From a virus (taxonomy: Duplodnaviria; Heunggongvirae; Uroviricota; Caudoviricetes), in the IMG/VR virus record IMGVR_UViG_3300028584_001240: a stretch of DNA of 64,000 bases. One strand, 5' to 3'. How positions within the stretch are numbered: the first letter of the stretch is position 1; every line of letters begins with the position of its first letter. Below, piece by piece: positions 4,983-30,627 of this stretch. The position numbers were made by a program, and so were the translations under genes. The notes under the pieces were generated by a model, which was given only the letters and a program-made list of their open reading frames with translations, was not told the origin of the DNA and made no database searches.

Positions 4983-5000
4983 AGTAACCTCCGATATTAG

Positions 5001-5009
5001 TTAAAACAT
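5001..5009 (-). other. Minimal upstream ORF (Met-Phe-stop) with strong SD
   Basis: GGAGGT-N8-ATG TTT TAA ending 18 nt upstream of the 4398..4982 start. Confidence 0.4.
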
Positions 5010-5046
5010 CGAAAATTACCTCCATAAAACTTAGCGAATAAAAATA

Positions 5047-5283
5047 TCATTTTAGTATCCTTTGAATGGCTCTTAAATTTAATTTTGAATAAATATAAAT
5101 TACAGAGTAGAAGGTAATCATACCTACAATACAGCCAACTGTCAATGTAATATATTGATTATCTATACCATATAGATTCTCAATACCTTTCGATCTCAAA
5201 TAACGATCTGTGGCTAAAAATGTAAAAGTAGTTGCGGCTATCATCATTAATAACACACATAACGCTTTTGTTGATGAACTCAT
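5047..5283 (-). CDS. Small membrane protein (2 TM)
   Basis: 78 aa, two hydrophobic stretches, AGGAG SD, directly after the GNAT gene. Confidence 0.75.
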   Translation of the reverse strand: MSSSTKALCVLLMMIAATTFTFLATDRYLRSKGIENLYGIDNQYITLTVGCIVGMITFYSVIYIYSKLNLRAIQRILK

Positions 5284-5292
5284 TAATTTCTC

Positions 5293-6084
5293 CTATATTT
5301 CAACACTGTAATATTCAGCAATTTTAAAACGATGGCTGACAAAGCTACCAATAGTGGATGGTTGTCTAATTTTCAATAGTTGTTCAACCCTGTCATTCAT
5401 TGGACTACTATACATCAATGTATCAGCACTCTTAATCTTGGATAAATCAGCTATATGAAATTTTTCAACATTAATGTATGAGTTTTTATCAATCACATGA
5501 TAAATATCAGAAACTTCAGCATCAACAACAATATCTTTCTTATTTTTATTCGTTAAAATGATATAATCATCAAAATTAAGATTGTCTGCAGTGAATTCTT
5601 TCATTGTCCATTCAAAGAAATAAAGATCGACAGCTTTGATAGGAAACAAATGAAACAACCCAGTGACACGATTAATTAAACGGTTATCTTTTTTGTTGCT
5701 CATGTTGACAAAATACATCTTTTGAGACTTCTTGTAGAATTTAAAGAAATACTTCAACAACATTTTTTCCAAGATGTGTTTACCTCTAAAACTTTTCATA
5801 ATTTTAAAGTCACACAAATACCAAATATTTTCACCATTCAAATGACGAAGAACAGCACAACCCGCACCAATAACCTTGTTATCATCATCTTCAACAACCA
5901 TATAATGAACTTCGCCTAGTTGTTCGAAGAATGAAAAGTAATCATAGGCACCTTGATACCCATGTCGAATGTAAAAGGATTTATCACCTAATGGGTAAGT
6001 GAATTCATTCTCAAAGTTCTGTAATTGTTCACTGTATGAACATCTCACTTTCCAATCTTCTAGATCTAAGGTTTTAATTTTCAT
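5293..6084 (-). CDS. GNAT-family N-acyltransferase-like protein
   Basis: VIGAGCAVLR...WYLCDFKIMKSFRGKHI resembles the GNAT acyl-CoA-binding motif A. Confidence 0.7.
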   Translation of the reverse strand: MKIKTLDLEDWKVRCSYSEQLQNFENEFTYPLGDKSFYIRHGYQGAYDYFSFFEQLGEVHYMVVEDDDNKVIGAGCAVLRHLNGENIWYLCDFKIMKSFRGKHILEKMLLKYFFKFYKKSQKMYFVNMSNKKDNRLINRVTGLFHLFPIKAVDLYFFEWTMKEFTADNLNFDDYIILTNKNKKDIVVDAEVSDIYHVIDKNSYINVEKFHIADLSKIKSADTLMYSSPMNDRVEQLLKIRQPSTIGSFVSHRFKIAEYYSVEI

Positions 6085-6096
6085 GATTCACTCCGA

Positions 6097-7641
6097 TTAA
6101 CGATTCACACCCACAGCGACTTCTGAATAAAACCATGTGACATCATTATCTGATTTCACCTTAAATCCACAATCAACCAACAAGTTTTTAAGATTGTAAT
6201 CACCCAACAATTTTCGACAAACAATCACACCATCATCAGCCAAACGGCCTTTAACATCCAGAATGACTTTCTTGTAGTCTTCCAAACTCATCCAGTCACC
6301 AATATTGGAAATGGACACGACTTTGTATTTTTTGTTAACATCTAATGCCTCAAAATCACCATGAATATATTGAATAGCATGTTTAAAGTGGTTAGCTTTC
6401 AACGCGGATTGAGTATTATGACTAGGATGAATATCAATACCATCAATAATGTTCTCAATGTTTCTACGAGTAATCGCACTTTCAATTTTACTTTCACACG
6501 CTTTAACAAAGACATTATAAAAGTGTTCAGCAAAACTTTCTGATGAATATTTAGTCGCCCTGTCACTGAATACATGTGCTAAGTTCTCATTTGAAAACAA
6601 CTCATTCACAATATATTTAAGTTTTTGACGGGCTACTGGTGATTCTTTGATGTAATCACTCAACAAACTATTCCCATGATAATTAAACGATGTTCTAATT
6701 TTCAGGAACACTTGTTCAAATTTACCACTAAAATTTTCTTCCTTGTTGTAATAACGGGAATCCGCCAACAATTCAAGGATTTTATATTTACAAAGATTAA
6801 TCTGATTGATGTTCATATCCACCGCATCAATTTGCAAATGGCATGGAAGGCCCAACATATCAATGATGGTTTCACCACCTGATGCAATCATAAGGATATT
6901 GTTTTCACCATTTTTCTTGCAGGTATCATTAATAGCCTTAATTTCAGGTGAGCTGTCTTCTCGGGTATAGTAAAATGAAATACCTTCTTCATTAACTTTT
7001 TTCATTTCATGTGCCGTTGCAATCACCATATGATTGTAAAGATCCAAAAATTCATCCTGCCCAACGTTGAAAGCTTCTTTTACAATATCTTCATCTTGTT
7101 CCAAGTGTACACCCACACTCAACAACTCGTCACCATGAATCCAATCCAGTTCAGAGTGGACCGCATAATGCGATTGTTCAGCGACCAAATCCAATGTCTT
7201 TACATGATCGGCAATGGTTTTACTGATAGGAGCATAAGCATACTCAATACCAGCCAAATAAGCCGCATAAGCACCAGCAGACATATCTTTACTCAAGACT
7301 TTTGAGATCCACTCTTGAATCCAAGGATTTTGGTGAAATTCACCATCCCAACCAAGAGCTGTTAGAAATTCTTTAAAGGTGGTGGTATGAAAGTGGGTCT
7401 TATTGCCATGTCCATGTTCTTCCCATAGATTTTCAACAACAAGCAAACGGTCTTCACTGATTTCAATCTGGCTAACTAATTTAGCAAGAAAACGTGGGAA
7501 TGCTTGGACAGCAAAGAAGAAAGGGATCTGAGAGCGTAGGTATTCAGCTTGGTTAGATTCTTCAATGAATGTATGATAACGATGTAGTGTCCAACCATTG
7601 TTGATTGTGGCATCAATTGCCCAGTTTTTAAATTTGCTCAT
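6097..7641 (-). CDS. Fusion: heme-oxygenase-like diiron (CADD/PqqC/TenA-fold) domain + DUF3419/BtaA-like SAM-dependent transferase
   Basis: Start moved to MSKFK (GGAG SD). ENLWEEHG..H, GIE and VHSELDWIH match the HDO iron-ligand pattern; YTREDS, ILMIASGG, IDAVDMN.NQ..L.KYK and ISNIGDWM match BtaA/DUF3419. Confidence 0.8.
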   Translation of the reverse strand: MSKFKNWAIDATINNGWTLHRYHTFIEESNQAEYLRSQIPFFFAVQAFPRFLAKLVSQIEISEDRLLVVENLWEEHGHGNKTHFHTTTFKEFLTALGWDGEFHQNPWIQEWISKVLSKDMSAGAYAAYLAGIEYAYAPISKTIADHVKTLDLVAEQSHYAVHSELDWIHGDELLSVGVHLEQDEDIVKEAFNVGQDEFLDLYNHMVIATAHEMKKVNEEGISFYYTREDSSPEIKAINDTCKKNGENNILMIASGGETIIDMLGLPCHLQIDAVDMNINQINLCKYKILELLADSRYYNKEENFSGKFEQVFLKIRTSFNYHGNSLLSDYIKESPVARQKLKYIVNELFSNENLAHVFSDRATKYSSESFAEHFYNVFVKACESKIESAITRRNIENIIDGIDIHPSHNTQSALKANHFKHAIQYIHGDFEALDVNKKYKVVSISNIGDWMSLEDYKKVILDVKGRLADDGVIVCRKLLGDYNLKNLLVDCGFKVKSDNDVTWFYSEVAVGVNR

Positions 7642-7666
7642 TTTAGCTCCATAAAGTAATTCAAAG

Positions 7667-7695
7667 AGTATATCATTTAAATCAGATATTATCAA
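7667..7695 (-). promoter_or_regulatory. sigma70-type promoter of the HDO-DUF3419/GNAT operon
   Basis: TTGATA-N17-TATACT with TGn extension. Confidence 0.65.
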
Positions 7696-7705
7696 TAAAT
7701 AATAG

Positions 7706-7727
7706 AAAAAAGTGGCCGAAGCCACTT
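7706..7727 (-). terminator. Intrinsic terminator after NADAR
   Basis: AAGTGGC-TTCG-GCCACTTTTTT on minus strand. Confidence 0.8.
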
Positions 7728-7737
7728 CTTTAATTAT

Positions 7738-8226
7738 TTAAGGTTGTTCTCGCAAGAGACGACGAACTTCCATCAGAACACGACCTAGCAAATTCAGCCC
7801 AAGCCATTTCTCTGGATTAGTGGCATCAGGATGGTTCTCATCCATACCGATACCCCAAATAGTATCATAGGGTGAAGCTTCAACCAGCACCAAGTCATCA
7901 GTAGCCAGCAACTGATCTTTCAAGTGTGTATTTTGAAGAAACTTTTGAAGGCAACCTTTTACCATAATAGCAAAACATTCTTGTTCCCATACTTCGGATA
8001 CGAAGCCTTTAACTTTTCGACCTAACGCCTTTTGATTACGTGGAATAGGTTCGGCCAACACCTCTTTTGCAATAGCTGTATCACCAAAGAGCATAGCTTT
8101 CGCATACATCATCCATTGTTCAGCACAATTGAATCGAACACCATCAATGGTAAAGGGCGATAGATGCCAGTTTGACATATAGTCTTTGGTCGTCCAGAAG
8201 AATGCAAAGCCGCTTTTAATTTTCAT
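7738..8226 (-). CDS. NADAR (YbiA-like) family protein
   Basis: SNWHLSPF, AEQWMMYAKAMLFGD, KALGRKV, KFLQN, LVEASPYDTIWGIG and GLNLLGRVLMEVR are canonical NADAR motifs. Confidence 0.93.
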   Translation of the reverse strand: MKIKSGFAFFWTTKDYMSNWHLSPFTIDGVRFNCAEQWMMYAKAMLFGDTAIAKEVLAEPIPRNQKALGRKVKGFVSEVWEQECFAIMVKGCLQKFLQNTHLKDQLLATDDLVLVEASPYDTIWGIGMDENHPDATNPEKWLGLNLLGRVLMEVRRLLREQP

Positions 8227-8285
8227 TTTTTTCAAGCCTCATAAAATATAATAGGCGAGAATGATACCACAATCACAGTGTGTTA

Positions 8286-8783
8286 TCAAGATTTAAATTG
8301 AAAACCACCTACAATAGACTTAGACATAAGCTCAGAAAAAGCAGATTCTTCATCGGATAAAGAAGAACGTAGTGATAGTGTATAAACAACGTAAGCTGAT
8401 GCGTCACCACGAATAAAGTAGCCATGCTGTCCGTTGACAGTCACAAACCCAGTTTCAACACGGTTCATTGATTTGTTTTCAAATTGAATGTCGATGTCAT
8501 TTAGTTCTTGAACATCATGCGTTATTTCATCAACTATAATGATATTATCATACAGAGGGTCATTAATCTGGGAGACTAGATTATTATAGAAAGAATTAAT
8601 ATACATCTTTGAAAAACTATCGGCATCCAATACATTTTCTGGTTTAATTGCTTCAGCAGGTTTGATATTTTTCTTGATATAACTGATAGTTAAGAATGTT
8701 CCCGGCCAATCATTTTCACCAAATTGAACAGGCCCACTTTTAAGAGCAACATCACCAGCGACTGAAATAACGGTTGTTTTCAT
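8286..8783 (-). CDS. Hypothetical protein, possible internal duplication
   Basis: Start MKTTV (GAGGA SD); SGPVQFGENDWPGTFL versus RVETGFVTVNGQHGYFIRGD. Confidence 0.75.
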   Translation of the reverse strand: MKTTVISVAGDVALKSGPVQFGENDWPGTFLTISYIKKNIKPAEAIKPENVLDADSFSKMYINSFYNNLVSQINDPLYDNIIIVDEITHDVQELNDIDIQFENKSMNRVETGFVTVNGQHGYFIRGDASAYVVYTLSLRSSLSDEESAFSELMSKSIVGGFQFKS

Positions 8784-8849
8784 GGTATAATCCTCATAGT
8801 CGCAATAATATACCATTATTTGTAAAGATGTTCAACAAATAATACTGAA

Positions 8850-9203
8850 TTAAACTTTATATTTGATACAGATATTGGACGATAATGTAGTTGCAGTGTC
8901 TTTCTTAAATTCCATAAAAGCAATAGTCGTAATACGCTCAGTAATCACAATAGACAAATTGGTACCAATCTCTCTGGTACCTGTCAAACAGGAATAACTC
9001 ACTTTAATTTTTTGACCATCATTAGTAAGAACATTAGCAACATCAACTTTAACACCTTTAACTTTCATGGTGCTAAAACCTGTAAGTTTTCCATCTTTCT
9101 CGATAGATGTAATGGTTTTATTGTAACCTAGCAAAAGAACTAGCATAGCAACAATGACTATAAGGTATGAAGATATTATAGCAATTGATTTGAAACTTTT
9201 CAT
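8850..9203 (-). CDS. Membrane-anchored hypothetical protein
   Basis: N-terminal TM helix; GGGAG SD before MKSFK. Confidence 0.75.
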   Translation of the reverse strand: MKSFKSIAIISSYLIVIVAMLVLLLGYNKTITSIEKDGKLTGFSTMKVKGVKVDVANVLTNDGQKIKVSYSCLTGTREIGTNLSIVITERITTIAFMEFKKDTATTLSSNICIKYKV

Positions 9204-9378
9204 GTAGACTCCCATTTAATTTAAGCTAACTATTATAACTATACGACAATAAGTCATAATAACAAGATTAAACGAAAATAATGTTTCAAAAAGTAACATG
9301 AAAAGTCGTTAAGATAAAGAAAATTTGAAATAAATATGGATTTATGTTATAATCATCACTCAATCAAGAGGTTTACTT

Positions 9379-9825
9379 ATGCTCACATTAAAAAAAGTTG
9401 AACATCCAAAAAATAAATTTTGCATTCAATATAAGACATGTCACACCGATATACATGAACATGATGTTTGGATGACTTTACCACCTTATATTCTAAGTGG
9501 TGTTGAAACTCTTGATGATCTTAGTAGTTTTCTCGAATGTTTTAAAGTTGTCAAAGATGAAATCACCAAATCAAGAACTGGCTACGGCTATCCCGGTAAT
9601 GATATTGATTTTGAAACACTGGCTGAGAATGTTGGCTGTGAGAAAATGGAATGGTACCAAAATGATGGTGTCATGGTTATTAAAGATGGAAAAGAGTTCT
9701 TTATTGATGTAGGCACAGATTTGGGAATGCCAACAGAAGATGGTCGTTTCATGTGTGGCATTGATATTAAACTGATCACTTATTTCGATAACAATGGTAT
9801 TGAATATATTGTAGAAGAAAACTAA
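9379..9825 (+). CDS. Hypothetical protein
   Basis: 148-aa ORF, GAGG SD, upstream TATAAT, downstream terminator. Confidence 0.8.
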   Translation: MLTLKKVEHPKNKFCIQYKTCHTDIHEHDVWMTLPPYILSGVETLDDLSSFLECFKVVKDEITKSRTGYGYPGNDIDFETLAENVGCEKMEWYQNDGVMVIKDGKEFFIDVGTDLGMPTEDGRFMCGIDIKLITYFDNNGIEYIVEEN

Positions 9826-9837
9826 TCGCAGATGTAG

Positions 9838-9863
9838 AAAAAGAGGCATCTGCCTCTTTTTTT
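9838..9863. terminator. Bidirectional intrinsic terminator
   Basis: AAAAAGAGGCA-TC-TGCCTCTTTTT between convergent genes. Confidence 0.8.
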
Positions 9864-9875
9864 ATAATTTTTATA

Positions 9876-10364
9876 TTATTGATTTTCTTTAATTGACTTC
9901 AATTTAGTATTTGAAATCTCAGTAATCAAGTCATGCATAAATCCACAAATAGCAACAAGAAACATAAATGAAGCAAGAAACAACACAGCAGATAAACCGC
10001 CTTCATGCATATCGGCAACACAAAGAAGGAGAATTTCACCGCACACCAAAACTCCTGCCAATATTTTCATTAATAGCATTAAACTTTTAACATGTTCTTT
10101 TGGTGTTTTTGCAAAGACGCACATTATCCATAAACCAAAAACACCTAACGGAATAACAAAATTCCAGATATTATCTTGAATAAAATGTTTACTTGGTAAA
10201 AATAAATTATTAACGAATAATATCGCACTCCATATATTGGCAGCATAAAAACTAGTTAATTTGGCTATTCCAATAATGATAGCAAGAACACCTGCAAACA
10301 GCAATAATTGCAAACCGCATTTAAACATTGTTTTTAATAATTCATTATTTTCATTGTTATTCAT
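9876..10364 (-). CDS. Multi-pass membrane protein
   Basis: 162 aa with about 4 hydrophobic segments. Confidence 0.75.
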   Translation of the reverse strand: MNNNENNELLKTMFKCGLQLLLFAGVLAIIIGIAKLTSFYAANIWSAILFVNNLFLPSKHFIQDNIWNFVIPLGVFGLWIMCVFAKTPKEHVKSLMLLMKILAGVLVCGEILLLCVADMHEGGLSAVLFLASFMFLVAICGFMHDLITEISNTKLKSIKENQ

Positions 10365-10480
10365 AATTAAACCTTTATTTGATATCCATTATTATATTAA
10401 ATGATACAACTTAATATAAGGTAGCAAGATGTCTAAAAAAGTCAATATAATAAAGAAATAAATATAATTAAACATCAATA

Positions 10481-10504
10481 AAAAATAAAGAGGCCGAAGC
10501 CTCT
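10481..10504 (-). terminator. Intrinsic terminator after the GlyRS-like gene
   Basis: AGAGGC-TTCG-GCCTCT followed by a T-rich tract on minus strand. Confidence 0.8.
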
Positions 10505-10510
10505 ATATAA

Positions 10511-11266
10511 TTATAGTTCATTCGTTACAACTAATTCTTTAAACACGGTTTGTCTTTGATTGATGTTATAGATTAAACGTTCAAGACCAAAAGCTATTTC
10601 CAGCACAAAACATTCTCTTGGTTGATTTTTGACCATCGGTTGATAAGTAAAATCTTTTCTTAATGACACTGAACAGACTTCCATCCATTTATCATTATTG
10701 AATACTTCTATATCAATTGTTTTTAAAGAATAATCAGGCAATCTATCGGAAAGAACAATTCTGACTGGTAAAGCAACCACATCCAAGAATATTTGAGCCA
10801 AAGGTTCTATAATACTTTCTTGGTAGTTATTCTTTGTGTCTTTTGTATATAAACATTGAAATTCTTGTTGATAGAATTCTTTGTATCTGCAGTGTTTGGT
10901 TACTTGGTCCTGTTCACGTCTAAAACTCTTTGATGTCTGCCATACACACAATGGTGGCATGTAATCCTGAGATTTTAAAAGATGTTCCATATACAAATAG
11001 GAACTTGCCGTAGTTTCTGGTTTAAGCACAATAGCGTCATGATTATGTTCTTCCTGTACCCATATATCTTCATCCGTATAATTAGCATTGACTAATTCTC
11101 TCGGAATTAAGCAAGGGGCTTCTATTTGGATAAATCGCCATGATTTATTCTGAGCAAAAAGTAACTCTTGAATTTCAAATTCCATCAGTTTAACCAGATA
11201 GTCTTTCAACATCAAGTCTCGTTTGTTTAAAAAAGGTAAAGCATTAAAGTTGTAAATAAATTCCAT
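10511..11266 (-). CDS. Class II aminoacyl-tRNA synthetase catalytic core, alpha2-type GlyRS-like, lacking the anticodon-binding domain (251 aa)
   Basis: Start moved to MEFIY (AGGAG SD). LKPETT, motif 2 KSFRRE..R.KEFYQQE, LPDYS..T.DIE...W.EV.....R.DF, motif 3 VLEIAFGLERL; ORF ends shortly after motif 3; Gly leader upstream. Confidence 0.8.
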   Translation of the reverse strand: MEFIYNFNALPFLNKRDLMLKDYLVKLMEFEIQELLFAQNKSWRFIQIEAPCLIPRELVNANYTDEDIWVQEEHNHDAIVLKPETTASSYLYMEHLLKSQDYMPPLCVWQTSKSFRREQDQVTKHCRYKEFYQQEFQCLYTKDTKNNYQESIIEPLAQIFLDVVALPVRIVLSDRLPDYSLKTIDIEVFNNDKWMEVCSVSLRKDFTYQPMVKNQPRECFVLEIAFGLERLIYNINQRQTVFKELVVTNEL

Positions 11267-11303
11267 GATAGTTCTCCTAGTTAGTTTGTTAAATTTTAAG
11301 CAT

Positions 11304-11326
11304 AAAAAAACCGCCGTTAGGCGGTT
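11304..11326 (-). terminator. Attenuator terminator in the leader of the GlyRS-like gene
   Basis: AACCGCC-TAAC-GGCGGTTTTTTT between leader ORF and CDS. Confidence 0.85.
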
Positions 11327-11367
11327 CGTGTCATTGTCAAAGGACAAACAGGTATACGCCAAAACCT

Positions 11368-11418
11368 TTAAGTTTGACGGCCACCACCAACAATGTTTGA
11401 AAAATTAATATGTTTCAT
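11368..11418 (-). CDS. Gly-rich leader peptide MKHINFSNIVGGGRQT
   Basis: AAGGA SD; GGT GGT GGC run; lies between promoter and attenuator terminator. Confidence 0.85.
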   Translation of the reverse strand: MKHINFSNIVGGGRQT

Positions 11419-11445
11419 GTGTTTATCCTTTTTGAAATTACTTTA

Positions 11446-11474
11446 ACTTTAACAAAACAAAGAGATTAAGTCAA
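11446..11474 (-). promoter_or_regulatory. Promoter of the Gly leader/GlyRS-like unit
   Basis: TTGACT-N17-TAAAGT with TGn extension. Confidence 0.6.
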
Positions 11475-11595
11475 CATTTTTCTTAAATCATAAGTAAAAA
11501 AAGAGTAAAGTGATTGTAAATAAGAACAATATTGATTTACTTTCTAGAAAATAGGAATAAGATGTAAGTATTAAACAAACATCTCTGAGGCACTT

Positions 11596-12000
11596 ATGAA
11601 ATTCCTATTCGGCATCCCATTATTGTTCACACTAAGTGGATGTATTGCTGATCCTTATTATGATGATTCATACAGCTATACAGAAACAACAACAAGAACG
11701 CAGTATGTTCCATCGGGAAGTTCGATGATTTATACTGAAACAGTTGTTCGTCCACAGATTTACTATCAACCAGCACCAGTGTATGTGTATCCAAGACCCG
11801 TTTATAGACCTTACTACAACGATAGAGGGCCACATTATAGACCTCATTATAATAGACCGGGACATGATTACAGACCTAACCGTCCACATAGACCTGACTA
11901 TAACAATGGTCATGGCAGACCTGATGGACATGGACCTAGACCGGGAAATGGCAACGATCATGGTGGTCGTCCTGATAGACCGCGTGGTGGTAGAGATTAA
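11596..12000 (+). CDS. Putative lipoprotein with Pro/Tyr-rich and R/P/H/G low-complexity tail
   Basis: MKFLFGIPLLFTLSG-C lipobox; YRP and GHGxP repeats. Confidence 0.85.
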   Translation: MKFLFGIPLLFTLSGCIADPYYDDSYSYTETTTRTQYVPSGSSMIYTETVVRPQIYYQPAPVYVYPRPVYRPYYNDRGPHYRPHYNRPGHDYRPNRPHRPDYNNGHGRPDGHGPRPGNGNDHGGRPDRPRGGRD

Positions 12001-12004
12001 GATT

Positions 12005-12035
12005 AAAAAAAAGCAGCCTAAATGGTTGCTTTTTT
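12005..12035. terminator. Bidirectional intrinsic terminator
   Basis: A-run-GCAGCC-TAAAT-GGTTGC-T-run. Confidence 0.75.
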
Positions 12036-12045
12036 ATAGTTAATT

Positions 12046-12675
12046 CTATTCGCCTGTTAATTTATCCAGTGGATATAGAAAAGACGTTTTTGTAGAATTG
12101 TAATAACCTGATTGCGGGAAACTGTGTAAGATGTTTCTAACTCTGTAAAATAATTGATTACTTTTAAACAATTTAAACTTGGTTTCTTTTAATACATCTA
12201 AATTATCATAATTAGGTACAGCACATAATTTATATTCTAATGACATCAATGCATCAATACTTTCAAACATTAAATAAATCGCATCAATAACTTCTTTATT
12301 TGAAGCACTAGTTAATGCTGGTTTTGTGTCTAATTTACTTTCTAATAAATCAATAGTTGATTTAACTTCATTTTCAAATGCCGACATATCAAAAGAAAGT
12401 TCTGGATTGTTGATCTTGTGTTTATGGCAGTAATTATTAGCAAAGTCGTTTAGATTACTTGCATAGTTTTTATAAAATTTTAAAACAGTAAATTTCATAT
12501 GTCCATGCGTTTTATAAACTTTCAGTAATACATCATTAATATCTCTTATCTCGGTGCGAGATTCGCATTTGACAGATGGGAGATTAACAAAATAATCAAT
12601 TTTTTCTGCAGTTAATTTATGTAGACCATAAACGAATTGTAGATATTCTTTAATAGCTCTCTCATGATTACTCAT
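12046..12675 (-). CDS. Hypothetical protein
   Basis: 209-aa ORF, AAGGAG SD. Confidence 0.8.
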   Translation of the reverse strand: MSNHERAIKEYLQFVYGLHKLTAEKIDYFVNLPSVKCESRTEIRDINDVLLKVYKTHGHMKFTVLKFYKNYASNLNDFANNYCHKHKINNPELSFDMSAFENEVKSTIDLLESKLDTKPALTSASNKEVIDAIYLMFESIDALMSLEYKLCAVPNYDNLDVLKETKFKLFKSNQLFYRVRNILHSFPQSGYYNSTKTSFLYPLDKLTGE

Positions 12676-12765
12676 TATTTACTCCTTATTGGTTGATAAT
12701 ATATCAAAAAAATTGAAAGATGTCAAAAGAATGATACAATAATATTAAACAATAATTTAGTAGAT

Positions 12766-14070
12766 ATGATTAAAATTACAGGTGTCACGGATTTAATTAT
12801 GGGTTCATGGGATTATCACCAGACGAAAAAAGACCTGAAAGATAATAATATGGGACTTGAATTGAGTGATTCATATCTTTCTTATCATGGTGCAAAAGCA
12901 GTACTTGGAGCTGTTAGATTTACAACACTAGGTATAGCTTACGGTTATGCTCTAAATACAGGAGCCTTTAATCAATTAGACAGCATAAGTGTAGGGTTAG
13001 TGGCTGCATTTACGGCGGGTCATATAGTTAATGGAATTATTCAATATGCTCCATCCTTACTAAAAGATGAAGCACTTTCATATAAGAGATTTCAAGGTAA
13101 TATTCTAAAAGATAACGAAATTTTTAATAAGATTACCAATCAAACAGAACTATCTGTACACACTTCATATCAATTGTTTATGGTGGGTAATAAGCTGGCT
13201 ACTGGTAATCCATTCGATAAAATAGTGTTTAAAATGAAAGAACAAATATCATTATGGAAAGAGAAATGGAACAATGAACAACTTGATCAATTTAATTTTA
13301 TTTCAAAAGCTGTTTTAAAATTAATAAAGAAATCAGATAGGTTAAGTGATATCCTAACTAAATTTGTTAAAGACAGCCCATTAAAAGTCGAAACTAACAA
13401 AATAATAAAAGTTCATGGAAATATCGAATCAAAAGAAAATGAATATTTCAGATCATACATGGCTGAAAAATACCCAGAAGAACAGAAAGTGAAAAAAAGT
13501 TGTGAAGAAAGGTTAGCAGGACTAAATCAGAAGGCAATATTGTCCGCTTATGATATAATAAGACAGCAAAACGTACAATTGTTTTTTGCTAAAATCGTAA
13601 TGGACTACAATAAGGGTCATATTCATAGTGATCTTATCAAGAAATTCGCGGAACTAAATAATCAAACAAAAATACCAGAAAAAGGTAAAAACACTTATCA
13701 GGAATTTGAACCTTATGCCAATATATCAAGAATGGCAAGAAAAATGATGGATAACAAAAAATTATACCTACCTGATGTAGATGTTAAAAAAATATTAAAA
13801 GACATTAATAAAGAAATGGTCAATGATAATAAAATAAAAATATATTCATTCAATAATATTTTTTATCATACAAAGAAAAAAATAATTAACAAAGAACTTG
13901 AAAAACAAGCACTTGGAAATATACTTAAATCTGATAAAAAGGCTGTCGTCAACGAAATAGAAATTGATAACAATTCATTCAACGAGATTGTAAAAATAAC
14001 AGATAAAAAACTAAATGAAGAGAAAAAGATTGCAGAAAAAATTCAAGAAGCAAAGAAAAACAAAATATAA
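12766..14070 (+). CDS. Hypothetical protein with N-terminal hydrophobic hairpin and basic C-terminal tail
   Basis: Gly/Ala-rich hydrophobic segments at about aa 45-95; ends EAKKNKI. Confidence 0.8.
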   Translation: MIKITGVTDLIMGSWDYHQTKKDLKDNNMGLELSDSYLSYHGAKAVLGAVRFTTLGIAYGYALNTGAFNQLDSISVGLVAAFTAGHIVNGIIQYAPSLLKDEALSYKRFQGNILKDNEIFNKITNQTELSVHTSYQLFMVGNKLATGNPFDKIVFKMKEQISLWKEKWNNEQLDQFNFISKAVLKLIKKSDRLSDILTKFVKDSPLKVETNKIIKVHGNIESKENEYFRSYMAEKYPEEQKVKKSCEERLAGLNQKAILSAYDIIRQQNVQLFFAKIVMDYNKGHIHSDLIKKFAELNNQTKIPEKGKNTYQEFEPYANISRMARKMMDNKKLYLPDVDVKKILKDINKEMVNDNKIKIYSFNNIFYHTKKKIINKELEKQALGNILKSDKKAVVNEIEIDNNSFNEIVKITDKKLNEEKKIAEKIQEAKKNKI

Positions 14071-14092
14071 CTCAGCCGTAGCTGAGTTTTTT
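14069..14092 (+). terminator. Intrinsic terminator
   Basis: AACTCAGC-CGTA-GCTGAGTTTTTT. Confidence 0.8.
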
Positions 14093-15173
14093 ATAATTTC
14101 GCAATGATATTATAATTGTGTACTTGTTTGTTTTTGATATTCTTTTCAAAATAGATTTCTGGATTACTGACATATTTCTCTTCGGATGTATAATACCTTA
14201 CCGTTTTATAACCTAAACCATGCATCATATCGACTAATGAATCAATGTCTCTTATTTTACTAATCACATCGCGTTGCACTTGTGTAATAACACCTTTATC
14301 CATAAGATATTGACCAATCTTACTGTAAGTAACAAACACATTGCTTTTATCAATAAGACCCAATGAGATTTCATCATCACGACCTGTTTCAAGTTTTTTA
14401 AGATAAGCCATTGGCTGCAATAAGTTAACATTTTTATCCATAAAATGTATAAGTTCTTTCTTTAAATTGTGTGTGCTTGTTCGCATACCATCGTTATTGC
14501 TTCTTAACGTTTCAAGTAGCTCAGAAAATTCATTAGTGTACTCAGTAAAACCACATTCAACATAGTTTTCAAACTTTGTTTTTGTCTTGCTTAATGATTT
14601 CTCTATCTGATAAATATCATTCTTACTTCTCTCTATCTTTTCTTGCAAATCATATTTATTATCAATGTAGTCATCATCATCCATATCGAGATCTTCGAAT
14701 TCTGATTCAAAACGAGCCAGTTGATCATTTTCTGCATTAAGATCTTTCTCTTCCTCAATATAAGCTTCATGTAGTGTTTCCCACTCTTTAATCATTTTAT
14801 TGATATTGTTGGCTTGCCTTTCTACTTCATCAAGGTAATCAAGACTTAATCTTTCTTCAATATCTTCATAATATTCAAGTATATCTTCTCGATGACCTTC
14901 TGGAATTAAATCTTTATCCATCTCATCAAATAAGTTACTAACATCAACTGCCCACTGCTGCAATTGGGCTACACGGTCTTGTAATTCATGCAATGTTAAA
15001 TACATTTCTTCTGGATTAAATAAGATGTCTACTTCATAAACAACTGATGAACGTTCACTGTTAAAGATGAGTGCATTGATCAATGGGCATGTATTGGGTG
15101 GTTGATTAGTAATCCCTAATAACGTATCTTCTTTAATTTGACTAATGGATGATAATTCTTTTAATGATTTCAT
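14091..15173 (-). CDS. Acidic coiled-coil hypothetical protein, paralog of 15175..16242
   Basis: Shared MKSLK.L.SI.Q, QP.NTCPLI, RSNND and QPM.YLKKLETG..DEISLGL.DKS. Confidence 0.85.
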   Translation of the reverse strand: MKSLKELSSISQIKEDTLLGITNQPPNTCPLINALIFNSERSSVVYEVDILFNPEEMYLTLHELQDRVAQLQQWAVDVSNLFDEMDKDLIPEGHREDILEYYEDIEERLSLDYLDEVERQANNINKMIKEWETLHEAYIEEEKDLNAENDQLARFESEFEDLDMDDDDYIDNKYDLQEKIERSKNDIYQIEKSLSKTKTKFENYVECGFTEYTNEFSELLETLRSNNDGMRTSTHNLKKELIHFMDKNVNLLQPMAYLKKLETGRDDEISLGLIDKSNVFVTYSKIGQYLMDKGVITQVQRDVISKIRDIDSLVDMMHGLGYKTVRYYTSEEKYVSNPEIYFEKNIKNKQVHNYNIIAKL

Positions 15174-15174
15174 G

Positions 15175-16242
15175 TTAAAGTCTCGGTTTAAGTTTACTTT
15201 CAGTTATTAATTCTTGGCTAAAATTGACTTCTTTGTAGAGTTCTGGGTGTTTTATACTGATAATTGGGTCGTCATAATATCGTATTGTGGTATAACCAGA
15301 CTTCTTCAAAAAGTCTAACAAAGGTTCAACGTCATCACATCTTTTTAATAATGTCTTCGCTATATCATTTATGACATCATGCTTATTGAGGTATTCAGTT
15401 AACTTTTCAAATGTCTGGGAGTAATAAGACTTATCAACAAGTCCTAGTGATATTTCATCTGGTTTGCCTGTTTCGAGTTTTTTTAGATAATCCATTGGTT
15501 GGGTGACATTAAAATCATTGTGGGCATATTCAATAACCATATCTCTTAAATAAATAACCGTATGTCGCAATTCATCATTATTTGAGCGAATCGACTCCAT
15601 TAATTCAGTAAAGGCATTAAGTTCCTTCTCAAAAGGTTTAGAAACATCAGAATTAAAATCATCTTTTAACTCTTCAAGTTTTTCATTAATATCTTCAACT
15701 GCAGTTTTTGCTGTGGCTATTGCAGCAACAGCATCTTCATAACCTTCATCTTCTGGTTCATTATCAAAATTACTTTCTAACTGGTCATGTTCCTTTTCGG
15801 CATTATCAAGTTCTCGTTCAACACGTAAATAATAAGCATGCTTATCCTGCCAATCATAAATAAGGTCATTAATGGTTTTGACACTGCAACCCACTTCATA
15901 CATTTTATTCCATGCTATTCTGTCTGTAATATCGGTTATATAGTCATCCATATTAACGATATCATCATTATCAATAATGGATTTATCTAATATTGAATAA
16001 ACATCAACCACTTCACTGGCCCATTTTTCAAGCGTTTCAATACGTTCTGCAAGACTTTTCTCATCCAGTAACAAATGTTTTGGATCATATTCAATGTCAA
16101 GGTCATAAATAGGACTACGGCGTTGCCCTAAATAGATTAAAGGGTCTATTAAAGGGCACGTATTGTCTGGTTGTGGTGTTATCTCTAACATGTGATCAAG
16201 TCTAACTTGACGTATGGATGGAAGATCCTTTAAAGACTTCAT
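15175..16242 (-). CDS. Acidic coiled-coil hypothetical protein, paralog of 14091..15173
   Basis: Same shared motifs; ends SKLKPRL. Confidence 0.85.
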   Translation of the reverse strand: MKSLKDLPSIRQVRLDHMLEITPQPDNTCPLIDPLIYLGQRRSPIYDLDIEYDPKHLLLDEKSLAERIETLEKWASEVVDVYSILDKSIIDNDDIVNMDDYITDITDRIAWNKMYEVGCSVKTINDLIYDWQDKHAYYLRVERELDNAEKEHDQLESNFDNEPEDEGYEDAVAAIATAKTAVEDINEKLEELKDDFNSDVSKPFEKELNAFTELMESIRSNNDELRHTVIYLRDMVIEYAHNDFNVTQPMDYLKKLETGKPDEISLGLVDKSYYSQTFEKLTEYLNKHDVINDIAKTLLKRCDDVEPLLDFLKKSGYTTIRYYDDPIISIKHPELYKEVNFSQELITESKLKPRL

Positions 16243-16299
16243 GTTTTTGCCTACTGTTTTTTACATTATAGCATAAGTGCTATAATTATTCAAAAAACA

Positions 16300-16659
16300 T
16301 CAATCAAACAATTTTTCTATGACTTTAACCATACGCTTTGCTTCTTTTCTCGCTTTAACCAACTTTTTTCGCCAAGCTGCTTGTTCTTTTCGGGTTCTTT
16401 TTTGGAAGGATAATTCTGAAAAGCTACGAATGGGAATATTATTTTCATCAACAATCTCACCAATTATCCAGTCAAAGAGATAACCTTCTTTAATATTTTG
16501 ATGGTCGGAAACATCAAAAACAGAAAAATTAAATTCCCCTATTTCTTCGTCAGACTTTGGATTAGTCACATCATATAAAATGGCAAAAAAAGTCTTTTTT
16601 TCAATGTCTACTGAATCAATATAACCTTCAAATTCTTGTAATATTTGTTTATGCTCCAT
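16300..16659 (-). CDS. Hypothetical protein
   Basis: 119 aa, AGGAG SD, basic C-terminal helix. Confidence 0.8.
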   Translation of the reverse strand: MEHKQILQEFEGYIDSVDIEKKTFFAILYDVTNPKSDEEIGEFNFSVFDVSDHQNIKEGYLFDWIIGEIVDENNIPIRSFSELSFQKRTRKEQAAWRKKLVKARKEAKRMVKVIEKLFD

Positions 16660-16693
16660 CTCTATTCTCCTGTTGATAACTACAATAACACAA

Positions 16694-17449
16694 CTATTTA
16701 TTAAATAAAACCATATGTGCTAACTTAAGTTGAGCATGAACTAAATCTATATCCAATGGTTTCGGTAATGGACCATAAAATTGTGTGAATATTTCGTCAA
16801 AACTTTCTAATGAATCCATTAATATATAATGTTTTAAGAGTAGGTTTTCGTCTTTGACATTAAAGCCCTGTTGGTAAGTTCTAAACTTAGCATTGTATTT
16901 ATCAACAATGCCATTAAAAAGTCCCCTCTGATTGCCTACAAACAGTTTTCCAACAGGATTATAATCCTTGTCAAAATCATAGCCAATATAGAATTCTGAC
17001 ATCATATATTTAATTTTAAAATAATTATGAAGATGAAATGCTTCATGAATATAGCAAAGTTCAAAGTTGTCATTATAAAACATAATTTTATTTTCAACCG
17101 AATCTTTAAACGATTGTTCATCACCACAGTGGATAAATAAAGTTAAGTCCAGATTTAAAAGAACATGATATTTAAATTGAGACGCAAGTGGACTATCGAG
17201 AATTTTAATAAAATCATCAATTTTTGTATCCACTGTTTTTTGATATACGGAGTCTATAATAGATACATTAGTTTTAGTGTCTTTAAATTCAATAGTAACA
17301 CTGACCCCATCATAAGAAGTCATTACCGTAATATCATCTAATGTAAATACTCTTTTTAGCAAACCTTTATGATTGATTGATTCCAGTCCAATAGCAATCA
17401 TACGTTCTAATTGAGATTTCTCAATATTTTTAACTTTATTTATCATCAT
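16694..17449 (-). CDS. Hypothetical protein; C-terminal-motif family (variant)
   Basis: ATGA overlap with upstream gene; ends LAHMVLF-NK. Confidence 0.8.
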   Translation of the reverse strand: MMINKVKNIEKSQLERMIAIGLESINHKGLLKRVFTLDDITVMTSYDGVSVTIEFKDTKTNVSIIDSVYQKTVDTKIDDFIKILDSPLASQFKYHVLLNLDLTLFIHCGDEQSFKDSVENKIMFYNDNFELCYIHEAFHLHNYFKIKYMMSEFYIGYDFDKDYNPVGKLFVGNQRGLFNGIVDKYNAKFRTYQQGFNVKDENLLLKHYILMDSLESFDEIFTQFYGPLPKPLDIDLVHAQLKLAHMVLFNK

Positions 17450-18570
17450 TTGGCCTTTGATACAGAAAAGAAGGTATTCTTGCTGGAATCATGTGAAGCA
17501 TTAAATGAACGTACATTGTATTCACCCTGATCAACATTCACAGTAATGCAACTATCAGATAATTCTTTAAAATCAATATTATGTTTCGTACAAAGATCTT
17601 TCATCAAATCATGATCAATCGCACAAACAGCCCAAAGATCGGTGCAAACATAACCCAAATCTTTTTCAGTATCCGTATAGTTTTTCACATAATCAGGATC
17701 TTCATCATCGTCACTATCATCGACATCAAGATCATCTTCACCTTCTTGTGGTGTATAAATGGATTCAAATTTTACTTCAATATTTTTTGTAATAGAGTCT
17801 TGAAATACATGTGGAGAAGTATTCCCAACTTGGACATAAATCATACCATGATTGTTCCAAAACTCTTGGGTATACATCACACCCAATTCACTGTTGATGC
17901 TGTTTGAGTAACCTGATTTTTCAGTAATATACTTATCAGCTTCAAAACGAGATAATTCTGGGAATAATTCACGGAGGTCATTCGCAAACAACAGTTTTCC
18001 TGATGGGATATTGAGTTTGTAAGTGTATTCATCAATGCCTTTTGTTAGTTTACAAGGCTGATGTCCTACAAACCTACCCATTCGGCTGTCTTCTGAAACA
18101 ACGCTAGTAAACATGCCATTTTTGAATGATGATTTAGTGGTTACACCACAAACAAAACAATAATGGTCAACCGTTAAAAACGAGGCATCAAGTGTTCTGA
18201 TGAATTCTGTTATAATTTTATCTTTGATAACGTTATCTACATCATTTTTAAGTTCTTCTTTATGTTTTAAGATCTCTCCAAAAAGTTTATAAGAAATCAC
18301 AAATTTGATTTGGTCACAATAACGTTGTACAAGGTAATCATATTCCATTGTGTCTTTAATTTCTTGCAAAGTAAGACCATCATATACACCCCTGTGATGA
18401 CCTTGAAGATCAACTTTCTTCGTCATAACAGTGGCTTTGAAATAAGTGTCAAAAAATGCATCTTCTTCTTTTTCCAAATGATGAACGTCTTCTTTGGCCT
18501 TCACAGGATCAACATCAAACATCAATGTATGGGCAGATTTGAAAATAATTGAATAATCAAGGTCTTTCAT
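17446..18570 (-). CDS. Hypothetical protein with CxxC and acidic tract
   Basis: CFVCG; EDDLDVDDSDDDED; GGAG SD. Confidence 0.8.
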   Translation of the reverse strand: MKDLDYSIIFKSAHTLMFDVDPVKAKEDVHHLEKEEDAFFDTYFKATVMTKKVDLQGHHRGVYDGLTLQEIKDTMEYDYLVQRYCDQIKFVISYKLFGEILKHKEELKNDVDNVIKDKIITEFIRTLDASFLTVDHYCFVCGVTTKSSFKNGMFTSVVSEDSRMGRFVGHQPCKLTKGIDEYTYKLNIPSGKLLFANDLRELFPELSRFEADKYITEKSGYSNSINSELGVMYTQEFWNNHGMIYVQVGNTSPHVFQDSITKNIEVKFESIYTPQEGEDDLDVDDSDDDEDPDYVKNYTDTEKDLGYVCTDLWAVCAIDHDLMKDLCTKHNIDFKELSDSCITVNVDQGEYNVRSFNASHDSSKNTFFSVSKAK

Positions 18571-18620
18571 GTTAAAACTCCATTAAAAATTTGTTTTATT
18601 ATAGCATAAATTGAGAATTG

Positions 18621-19367
18621 TTAAATTTTTGTCATGTCATATAAACTTAAAAAGGCTTCTGGATTTTCTTTAAATTTATTATACAAATCAGACCAGTCTT
18701 CTGTGTCAAATAATTCTTGAATATTTTCATCATGAATACTTAAAAAAGACATTTTAGCAAATATTAGGGCTTCTTGTGGGTTCGTAATCTTATAGAACCT
18801 ATTATAATCCTCACTATAAAGGCTTAATGAATTGGTATAATAACGATTACTGCCTCTTGCTGATGAAGGCCCATTACGATAACTATCAGAATATTTAAAC
18901 ACACCATCAATATCGGTTAACACACCATCAAAATTAAATTTTAGTGTAGGTGAAACACTCTCAACAATGTCAGAACGAGTCACTATAAAAGATGAGACTT
19001 CTTTAAAGTTAGCGAAATATGAAGTGAGATCATGTAAATGAAGCAATTCTTTTAAGGTGTCATCATCTTTGTCATTGAATTCAAATTCTATATAATTAAC
19101 TTTTAAGGAATCATCTTTAAACAAAGTAGCTGACAGCTTAAATTTAATAGGATGATCCGCATTAAATGCCCCAAACCCACAATCCAGTATATAAGTAGGT
19201 GTGAACACATACGTTTTATCTTTATCATTCATATGAAAAATTTCATTGTCCTTATTTTCTTTTACATAAGAACAACCATTAAGACCAATTCTTTGTACAA
19301 GTTCGGAAAACGTGGACAATATATCTCGTTCAACTTTATGCTTTGCATCGTCAGTGAATTTAGTCAT
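18621..19367 (-). CDS. Hypothetical protein; C-terminal-motif family
   Basis: ATGA overlap; ends LYDMTKI. Confidence 0.8.
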   Translation of the reverse strand: MTKFTDDAKHKVERDILSTFSELVQRIGLNGCSYVKENKDNEIFHMNDKDKTYVFTPTYILDCGFGAFNADHPIKFKLSATLFKDDSLKVNYIEFEFNDKDDDTLKELLHLHDLTSYFANFKEVSSFIVTRSDIVESVSPTLKFNFDGVLTDIDGVFKYSDSYRNGPSSARGSNRYYTNSLSLYSEDYNRFYKITNPQEALIFAKMSFLSIHDENIQELFDTEDWSDLYNKFKENPEAFLSLYDMTKI

Positions 19368-20236
19368 ATTTTTATCATCTCAAAAGTGGTTAAAGAAACT
19401 TTGTAAAGCTCATAAACCTCAAGATCAGTCAACGAGAATATATCATTAAAGTAATCATTTTCTTCCATGAAAGACATCAACTCTGGAATAGGTTGACCAC
19501 CCAACATAATTAAAACACCCAAATGTTCGGAATTAAAGGTTTCAAAGTCTAATACTCTCCTGAAAACAATTTTACTGATGTATTCATAAAAGGTGGTAAA
19601 CAATTTTTTCTTGATTAACTGCTTGAAGTGGTCATAATGGTCATTGATTTCATCAACAGGAATCGAAACAATAACTTGCATTTTATCGGCTGATTTAGGG
19701 GCTTGGAAATAAAAAATACCATCAATAATGTAATAAGAGAATTTCATAAACTCATTATCAACATTGCCATTGCCATAATTAGACATAATGGTGTAAAAGT
19801 TGTACTGACTTTTGTCGTCAATAAAAATGGCGTTATTAAAAATAACTCGATCAACCAAGTGCGGCGTTTCAAATTCATGAGGAAAGGCTAATGTTTTGGG
19901 TCTACGAAAATTAAGAAAGCCTTTCTGGAAAATACGCACTTTATCTGAGTCAAAGTGTAAATGCTCTTTAAATTCAGTATCCGAAGGGATAATATTGAAT
20001 TCAATCAACGCTTCAAAATAAGCAGTCATCATCTTGTGATGAATTTCAGCAGATACCGAATCAATTTTAAACAAAGCGTTTAATTTGTCAGTGACAAGCT
20101 TTCGAATGTAAAGTGGACTGGCACAAACACGATTGTCCATTAATTTAAATTGAACAGATTCTCCCCAGTGCGTAAGGAATTCATCCGCAGCCAGAAAAGA
20201 TTGCCCATATTTTTTGTAGTAATCGTATAGTTGCAT
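19364..20236 (-). CDS. Hypothetical protein; C-terminal-motif family
   Basis: GAGG SD; ends TFEMIKI. Confidence 0.8.
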   Translation of the reverse strand: MQLYDYYKKYGQSFLAADEFLTHWGESVQFKLMDNRVCASPLYIRKLVTDKLNALFKIDSVSAEIHHKMMTAYFEALIEFNIIPSDTEFKEHLHFDSDKVRIFQKGFLNFRRPKTLAFPHEFETPHLVDRVIFNNAIFIDDKSQYNFYTIMSNYGNGNVDNEFMKFSYYIIDGIFYFQAPKSADKMQVIVSIPVDEINDHYDHFKQLIKKKLFTTFYEYISKIVFRRVLDFETFNSEHLGVLIMLGGQPIPELMSFMEENDYFNDIFSLTDLEVYELYKVSLTTFEMIKI

Positions 20237-30597: not shown

Positions 30598-30627
30598 ATG
30601 AACACTAAACTATTGAGACGACTTTAA
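30598..30627 (+). CDS. Arg leader peptide MNTKLLRRL
   Basis: GGAG SD; tandem AGA CGA codons; lies between promoter and argS. Confidence 0.7.
   Translation: MNTKLLRRL

Follow-up and report, generated by a model that had tools for sequence, protein, structure and literature searches.

A putative glycine-codon leader-peptide attenuator ahead of a GlyRS-like gene in a Caudoviricetes virus

Leader-peptide attenuation is a textbook form of gene regulation, and the amino acids known to be sensed in this way include Trp, His, Leu, Thr, Ile/Val and Phe, besides a few more. Control by glycine is known through riboswitches and T-boxes. This report concerns a candidate leader of the first kind that would respond to glycine. 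It lies in IMG/VR virus record IMGVR_UViG_3300028584_001240 (Caudoviricetes), in a stretch of 64,000 nucleotides (nt) that was analysed as a whole and is called the window here. On the minus strand of the window, a gene for a 251-amino-acid protein resembling glycyl-tRNA synthetase (GlyRS), labelled P0001, is preceded by a short leader open reading frame (ORF) with three consecutive Gly codons and by a transcription terminator.

Several described systems come close to this arrangement. Examples are the pheM leader ahead of pheST in E. coli and the attenuators predicted for trpS and leuS in Streptomyces (PMC1262725), where, as proposed for the window, a synthetase gene is controlled by a short leader rich in cognate codons and by alternative antiterminator and terminator hairpins. 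The trpL, hisL, leuL and thrL leaders (PMC1183508) have the architecture of 1:2, 2:3 and 3:4 pairings with an intrinsic terminator that is proposed for the window, and in the window as in these, segment 1 overlaps the regulatory codons and the stop codon adjoins segment 2. The glyQS/glyS T-box of Firmicutes (PMC4574755) would share both the input (charged or uncharged tRNA-Gly) and the output (a terminator or antiterminator before a GlyRS gene). Judged from sequence and folding models, the window probably holds a ribosome-mediated transcription attenuator of the leader-peptide type, in which the Gly codons would act as a functional sensor of Gly-tRNA(Gly) for the GlyRS-like gene. What the analysis shows is the set of sequence elements, their conservation, covariation and geometry, and the thermodynamic feasibility of the alternative structures.

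The leader and its counterparts in related loci

The elements around the gene are the following:

11469-11474, minus strand: -35-like hexamer TTGACT, with a 17-nt spacer to the -10 element
11446-11454, minus strand: extended -10-like element TGT-TAAAGT (TAAAGT at 11451-11446)
11426-11430, minus strand: Shine-Dalgarno (SD) sequence AAGGA of the leader, 7 nt ahead of the leader ATG
11368-11418, minus strand: leader ORF MKHINFSNIVGGGRQT, 16 codons plus TAA (stop at 11370-11368)
11380-11388, minus strand: regulatory Gly codons GGT GGT GGC
11304-11327, minus strand: intrinsic terminator GAACCGCC-TAAC-GGCGGTTT with a T-run (hairpin 11327-11308, T7 ending at 11304), which forms segments 3 and 4
11274-11278, minus strand: SD sequence AGGAG of the synthetase-like gene
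10511-11266, minus strand: P0001, a 251-amino-acid class II aminoacyl-tRNA synthetase (aaRS) catalytic core, GlyRS-like, without anticodon-binding domain and with a single Gly (G227)
10480-10504, minus strand: the gene's own terminator, AGAGGC-TTCG-GCCTCT with a T-rich tail

An original prediction, made from the sequence, had named the promoter TTGACT-N17-TAAAGT, the leader with GGT GGT GGC and the terminator 37 nt before the ATG, and all of these lie on the minus strand where it had placed them. As in an attenuator, the 5' leader contains a translatable ORF with an SD sequence and a start codon, a cluster of Gly codons that would be cognate to the controlled gene (a link that rests on the GlyRS-like assignment and the Gly depletion of the protein), and an intrinsic terminator between the ORF and the gene. 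The terminator has a stem of 8 bp (5 of them G-C), a 4-nt loop and T7, ends 37 nt ahead of the gene ATG at 11266, and has a hairpin energy of about -12 kcal/mol; among the terminator-like hits listed for positions 5000-20000 (14 hits, with 5.3 expected) it ranks first. All leader elements are found, correctly ordered, in the 329-nt gap between the gene (11266-10511) and the ORF at 11596-12000 on the plus strand. Because this neighbour is divergent, the leader terminator is not that of a co-directional gene upstream, and between the terminator and the gene there is no space for a separate promoter and SD sequence. The gene ends at 10511 with its own terminator at 10504-10480, and the unit is therefore monocistronic.

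The leader was compared with the upstream DNA of 15 related loci whose proteins are 65-96% identical to P0001, giving 16 loci in total. All 15 relatives share the layout, which is an ATG-initiated leader ORF of 14-26 codons containing GG, GGG or GFGG, then a terminator, then the gene. In most of the 16 loci the leader is preceded by an SD sequence of the AGGA/GAGGA type, and a G+C-rich hairpin with a U-run is present in every one of them, at a distance of 29-51 nt from the gene in the relatives, or 164 nt in the case of locus L168. The leader peptides of the relatives include MNVILVIIGGGSQT, MQTFSVIIAVIGGGRQLTHRRLFAFV and MLPNIVITVIGGGCPKKLGGFSISFI, and further MFNSQLTTIVMQGGCPQT, MTTFNFNNIGFGGGCIKLQPLPYCCF and MNMLNKFNKKGFGGCSLIE. 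Their N-terminal parts diverge freely. The Gly residues are kept while the third codon positions vary (GGT GGT GGC, GGC GGC GGT, GGA GGG GGT, GGT GGA GGT, GGA GGA GGT), so that all four Gly codons (GGT, GGC, GGA and GGG) are in use across the leaders. This variation with a period of three indicates that the coding is under selection, and not RNA pairing alone. A separate detail of the leader of L007 is that its stop codon is TAG, and read-through of this codon would add FGGF... to the peptide.

By itself, the promoter of the window is just a 9/12 match to the consensus, and sites of this kind are no more frequent than shuffling predicts (80 found, 83 expected). What supports it is its recurrence in the relatives: TTGAC(A/T), a 17-nt spacer and (T/C)AnnnT occupy the equivalent position in 10 of the 15 relatives, and an eleventh has TTTACA there. 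The leader ORF is itself rare. The two strands of the window, whose G+C content is 31%, contain 934 short ORFs of 8-40 codons that start with ATG, and this one alone encodes GGG; GGNGGNGGN occurs just 3 times in the 128 kb of both strands. A census of 202 non-redundant homologous loci found a leader ORF with the Gly motif, which was defined post hoc, in 106 of them in the sense direction, compared with 6 on the reverse complement. The probability that a short ORF and a hairpin stand next to each other here by chance is negligible: the promoter match is indeed no better than chance when taken alone, but the conservation in 15 relatives, the covariation described below, the census and the rarity of the ORF all contradict this explanation.

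The stretch from promoter to terminator could also be a gene of its own, for a small RNA (sRNA) or a 16-amino-acid micropeptide, with the synthetase-like gene expressed independently. Rfam gives weak matches over the terminator, to RcsR1 (25.9 bits, cut-off 60) and AaHKsRNA82 (28.9 bits, cut-off 51.4), and there is a promoter-like site at 11292-11265. However, the Rfam scores are far under their thresholds, and the -10 element of the site at 11292-11265 overlaps the start codon, so that no mRNA bearing an SD sequence would result. The small ORF is also tied to the gene family in unrelated contexts, including the chromosomes of Paraburkholderia and Rhizobium, and covariation of an antiterminator would be pointless in a free-standing sRNA. 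A separate gene is on these grounds very improbable.

The controlled GlyRS-like gene

P0001 matches Pfam tRNA-synt_2b (3.7e-11), and dimeric GlyRS are its closest matches in the PDB, whether these are sought by sequence (6.8e-6), with a family profile (2.6e-12) or with Foldseek (~6e-14). GlyRS is the top match by phmmer, profile and Foldseek alike, with a predicted local distance difference test (pLDDT) score of 90.8 for the model. The protein contains the class II core with motifs 2 and 3, nearest to that of GlyRS, and its class II motifs are intact, including the acidic residues of PET and QxE. Glycine or tRNA(Gly) would be its substrate, for which the hints are indirect: the Gly leader, the Gly depletion and the tRNA-Gly genes that adjoin homologues in several phage tRNA arrays.

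The composition of the protein is unusual. It contains 1 Gly in 251 residues (0.4%; G227 in motif 3), which is the lowest content among 61 window ORFs with a mean of 3.9%. Across the family, 23 of 121 members have no Gly at all and 58 have one. In low-GC loci, a single Gly is found in 16 of the 17 genes that follow a Gly leader, and the median for those without the leader is 7 (Mann-Whitney p=5e-6, uncorrected for phylogeny). Enzymes that are made when an amino acid is short are known to contain little of it (PMC4209129). The Gly depletion of P0001 points to glycine independently of the leader, and with a single Gly its synthesis should still be possible during glycine shortage. In the original prediction the leader had been taken as independent support for the Gly specificity of the truncated enzyme, and this specificity is also backed in silico by the count of 1 Gly in 251 residues and by dimeric GlyRS being nearest in sequence and fold. 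No such GlyRS-like protein is included in a review of aaRS paralogues from 2022, and a literature search for a truncated GlyRS paralogue found nothing relevant.

Alternative RNA structures and the proposed switch

In addition to the terminator, the alternative structures of the window involve two segments:

11371-11381, minus strand: segment 1, GCCGTCAAACT (GCCGUCAAACU), made up of the second and third base of the last Gly codon and the Arg, Gln and Thr codons
11357-11366, minus strand: segment 2, GGTTTTGGCG (GGUUUUGGCG), which pairs with segment 1 or, via GGCG, with the 5' arm of the terminator

The 16 loci contain four unrelated terminator sequences (AACCGCC/GGCGGTT, GCACCC/GGGTGC, AAGGCTGC/GCAGCCTT and AGGCTAC/GTAGCCT). 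At every locus, a segment near the leader stop copies the 3' arm of the locus's own terminator, and is hence able to pair with the 5' arm as an antiterminator. Thirteen of the loci belong to other lineages than the window, and in 12 of them the energy of this cognate duplex beats that of shuffled sequences at p<=0.05 (p=0.06 in L171), and the cognate duplexes are stronger than pairings with the unrelated terminator classes. The free-energy difference (ddG) of the antiterminator is -8.1 to -16.5 kcal/mol in 12 of these 13 loci, and -5.5 in L168.

Constrained folds were calculated for nascent RNA cut before the 3' arm of the terminator, with ribosome footprints as constraints. With a Gly codon in the ribosomal A site, segment 2 is paired to the 5' arm in every locus among the folds listed, and a recount under the Gly-codon stall gives 5-12 antiterminator pairs in 16/16 loci. 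When the ribosome is at the stop codon, the antiterminator is absent from the folds, except in L171. Without a ribosome, segment 2 is mostly bound by segment 1 (the Gly codons and the codons following them) in 14 of the 16 loci; in the models, the partners of segment 2 in 14 loci fall mostly within the footprint of the stalled ribosome, as a segment 1 should. The distance from the last Gly codon to segment 2 is 14-22 nt in all 16 loci, just past the edge of a stalled ribosome. Measured from the stop codon, the distance is anything between -25 and +10 nt, and the geometry is therefore anchored on the Gly codons.

In the window, segments 1 and 2 form a local hairpin with the UAA stop codon in its loop, and in the ensemble GGCG is nearly always paired to the GGC-CGU-C region (C50-C54). 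Segment 1 would be covered by a ribosome that stalls at the Gly codons. The pairing segments quoted in the original prediction are all present (GTCAAA at 11378-11373, TTTGAC at 11341-11336, AGGT at 11367-11364 and ACCT at 11353-11350), as are GGCG at 11360-11357 and CGCC at 11323-11320, and constrained folding picks the same GGCG:CGCC antiterminator. The prediction that stalling masks GTCAAA holds in so far as this sequence is inside the segment that a Gly-stalled ribosome would mask, but the predicted partner of that segment is the adjacent GGUUUUGGC and not the distal TTTGAC. The proposed structure with GTCAAA:TTTGAC and AGGT:ACCT is feasible and near isoenergetic (-7.0 vs -6.6 kcal/mol), but it is not preferred in the ensemble and is absent in L168; the masked segment is identical in the local-hairpin and the distal-pairing versions. 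As for the candidate antiterminator, the folds do find it, but in the window it is weak and does not exceed shuffled controls. Gly-codon attenuation as a whole is supported by the comparative and folding evidence obtained in silico.

Two other pairings of this leader may be recorded here. The Gly codons themselves were considered as an antiterminator (GGUGGU:ACCGCC, -10.6 kcal/mol), and this candidate was rejected, being no better than composition-matched shuffles in 15/16 loci and not conserved. In the minimum-energy fold without a ribosome, the region of the leader SD sequence, AAGGAUAAACA (11430-11420), forms 11 bp with UGUUUGUCCUU (11349-11339), both on the minus strand. The latter sits downstream of segment 2, and a U-to-C change in L088 turns a G-U pair of the SD region into a G-C pair. 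This pairing may shut off re-initiation on the leader, or may be due to chance.

The switch would work as follows, although stalling at the Gly codons and the read-through that ensues are what we infer from these data. Transcription would begin about 25 nt ahead of the 16-codon leader ORF. With ample Gly-tRNA(Gly), the ribosome would pass GGU GGU GGC and reach the UAA, where it would cover the GGCG located 10-13 nt beyond the stop. After its release, segment 1 (GCCGUCAAACU) would pair again with segment 2 (GGUUUUGGC), and the hairpin GAACCGCC/GGCGGUUU with its U-run would then stop transcription 37 nt short of the gene. With charged tRNA(Gly) scarce, the ribosome would stall on the Gly codons and cover segment 1. 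Segment 2, which is 22 nt past the last Gly codon, would be left free, and its GGCG could pair with the CGCC of the terminator 5' arm. The terminator would be blocked in this case, and RNA polymerase would read into the gene for the 251-amino-acid GlyRS-like protein, an enzyme that with its single glycine could still be made under glycine shortage.

A number of observations weigh against such a Gly-tRNA(Gly) sensor, and they concern the antiterminator, the leader codons, the enzyme and the statistics. In the window the antiterminator is reduced to the four G-C pairs of GGCG:CGCC, with a ddG of -4.4 compared with about -12 kcal/mol for the terminator, and its duplex energy of -8.0 is no better than that of shuffles (-6.6 +/- 2.1, p ~0.2). 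The closest relatives, L006 and L088, share this weakness (lineage ddG -4.4 to -5.8 kcal/mol). The regulatory codons number just three in the window and 2-3 in the family, and the residues beside them are conserved too ([IV][IV]GGG[RCS], GFGG), which would be needless for pure codon sensing. P0001 lacks a C-terminal anticodon-binding domain, the protein stopping about 20 residues past motif 3, and its score falls far short of the NCBIfam cut-offs for GlyRS (47 bits with PRK04173, for which the cut-off is 312). Finally, neither the leader census nor the correlation between leader and Gly depletion was corrected for shared ancestry.

The weak antiterminator implies that the switch of the window is either strongly biased towards termination or partly decayed. 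If the attenuator had decayed in the lineage of the window, L006 and L088, the terminator would be mostly a constitutive leaky brake with little or no response to Gly, and an antiterminator of -4.4 to -5.8 kcal/mol that is not above shuffles is what one would expect. This is nevertheless rather improbable, as the leader ORF with its SD sequence and Gly codons, the 1:2 hairpin and the spacing have all stayed intact, with little or no difference among the three loci, and in L088 a difference in the terminator loop lengthens the antiterminator pairing to 6 bp. In L007, whose protein is 86% identical to that of the window, the antiterminator reaches -10.1.

The conserved residues next to the Gly codons could be read differently. 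The leader would still be an attenuator in this case, but it would act through a nascent-peptide arrest motif ([IV][IV]GGG, GFGG) that responds to free glycine, to some other ligand or to general translation capacity, instead of to a simple lack of Gly-tRNA at the codons. Flanking residues are kept across deep divergence (IVGGGR, IIGGGS, VIGGGC, GFGGC), Alphaproteobacteria have the motif AF(G/S)GRGLRV, and some relatives have two Gly codons only (QGG in L168, GFGV in L092, GFGEG in L171). On the other hand, Gly is the sole residue common to all leaders, and the conservation of the flanking codons can be explained by pairing, since they are part of RNA segment 1 as well. The controlled enzyme is moreover depleted of Gly, which fits best with a shortage of Gly-tRNA. 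Peptide arrest is for these reasons considered an unlikely basis of the switch, and sensing of Gly-tRNA(Gly) by the translating ribosome is preferred.

The wider family and known systems

The P0001 family comprises 718 clusters at E<=1e-3. It is found in jumbo and huge phages and on metagenomic contigs of up to 1.86 and 2.23 Mb; the contig of 1.86 Mb carries a 94%-identical homologue (L088), and that of 2.23 Mb a 70%-identical one (L171) which adjoins Kup and GGDEF genes. The nearest DNA matches are likewise from jumbo and huge phages, with about 70% identity across the gene only. A scan of genome contigs with the single protein found no homologue, and an alignment-based scan of genome contigs places the family on chromosomes of Rhizobium, Phenylobacterium, Devosia, Caulobacter and Paraburkholderia.

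The leader takes different forms across this range. In Paraburkholderia the leader MDAMRHWVNQRGFGGT is followed by a terminator. In Rhizobium, Caulobacter and Devosia a leader is found without a U-tract terminator. The alphaproteobacterial loci (L183, L185, L199, L211, L238, L242, L248 and others) have a conserved leader of 28-50 codons about 200 nt upstream of the gene, ending in (A/V)(F/L)(G/S)GRGLRVxx, or in GRRGMGVFG in the case of Devosia. Around its stop codon there is a long stem with 4-5 compensatory pairs, followed by an invariant GACGUAAAGC box. No U-tract terminator and no Rfam match was found in these loci, and the output mechanism in Alphaproteobacteria is probably a different one. 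The homologue in phage XbC2 belongs to an operon and lacks a leader; not every member of the family is thus preceded by one.

The gene is also found without a leader in phage tRNA arrays. In 4 of 11 such arrays inspected by eye (L008, L060, L063, L069), a tRNA-Gly is directly upstream of the gene, and in L054 it is downstream. This adjacency is suggestive with regard to the substrate of the enzyme. Ten viral or metagenomic contigs have a tRNA with a CTA anticodon (amber-reading; called 'Pyl' by ARAGORN) within about 2 kb of the gene, namely L007 (35-109; protein 86% identical to that of the window), L026, L027, L028, L030, L033-L036 and L067. These tRNAs suggest TAG-recoding phages.

The window itself contains no tRNA genes. 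Ten of its large ORFs have no PHROG match, and most of its ORFs have no Pfam match. The divergent neighbour of the leader, ORF 11596-12000 on the plus strand, starts with MKFLFGIPLLFTLSGC..., read by eye as a lipoprotein-type signal peptide with a lipobox, and has a weak match to the PXPV-repeat family of Pfam. Two further synthetases are found. An arginyl-tRNA synthetase (ArgRS; 30682-32349, plus strand) contains 0.9% Arg, compared with 3.0% in window proteins, and a protein resembling alanyl-tRNA synthetase (AlaRS; 54226-53390, minus strand) contains 1.1% Ala, compared with 4.3%. With the GlyRS-like protein included, each of the three synthetases in the window is thus poor in its cognate residue. 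The ArgRS gene is preceded by the ORF MNTKLLRRL (30598-30627), which has an SD sequence and two Arg codons but no terminator hairpin; relatives of this ArgRS were sought in viral contigs as a test of its leader, and none were found.

It is possible, if doubtful, that the attenuator is the sensor arm of a self-contained and horizontally mobile 'emergency GlyRS' module, which measures about 1 kb from promoter to terminator. The Gly-purged minimal synthetase would be made during shortage, the module would be ancient and family-wide, with members in giant phage-like elements, in Paraburkholderia and, behind a leader of another structure, in Rhizobium, Caulobacter and Devosia, and it would be one of three such synthetases here that jointly override a depletion of charged tRNAs imposed by nutrients, host or competitors.

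With respect to known systems, Rfam shows no Trp, His, Leu or Thr leader, T-box or glycine riboswitch over 11266-11474, even at E<=10, and no match at gathering thresholds in ten related loci. A Gly-codon attenuator was not found in Rfam or in the searchable literature. The protein resembles dimeric (alpha2-type) GlyRS (8u2q / 8sld / 1ati) most in sequence and fold, but has about half the residues and no anticodon-binding or insertion domains. The low-cognate bias has been described for biosynthetic pathways (PMC4209129), whereas the present case concerns a synthetase-like protein and is extreme, with 0-1 Gly.

The closest regulatory systems differ from the window in input, target or both. The T-box binds tRNA directly and without translation, whereas the sensor of the window would be a translating ribosome. 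The glycine riboswitch is also a glycine-related cis-regulatory leader, but its ligand is free glycine and its targets are glycine catabolism or transport. Attenuators of the trpL type control biosynthetic operons, whereas in the window the gene encodes an enzyme of the tRNA-charging type, behind a short leader with a weak antiterminator. In contrast to the attenuators of pheST, trpS and leuS, the one in the window would sense Gly, with a stand-alone catalytic core of 251 amino acids as its target and only 2-3 regulatory codons. By analogy with these systems, it would represent a new amino-acid specificity and a new target for a known type of switch. For the widespread, half-sized and Gly-poor GlyRS-like family, this offers a direct functional hypothesis, which is that glycine is the substrate of the protein and that the protein is required during a shortage of Gly-tRNA. 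It also hints at a way in which very large mobile elements or phages might protect translation when particular charged tRNAs run low.

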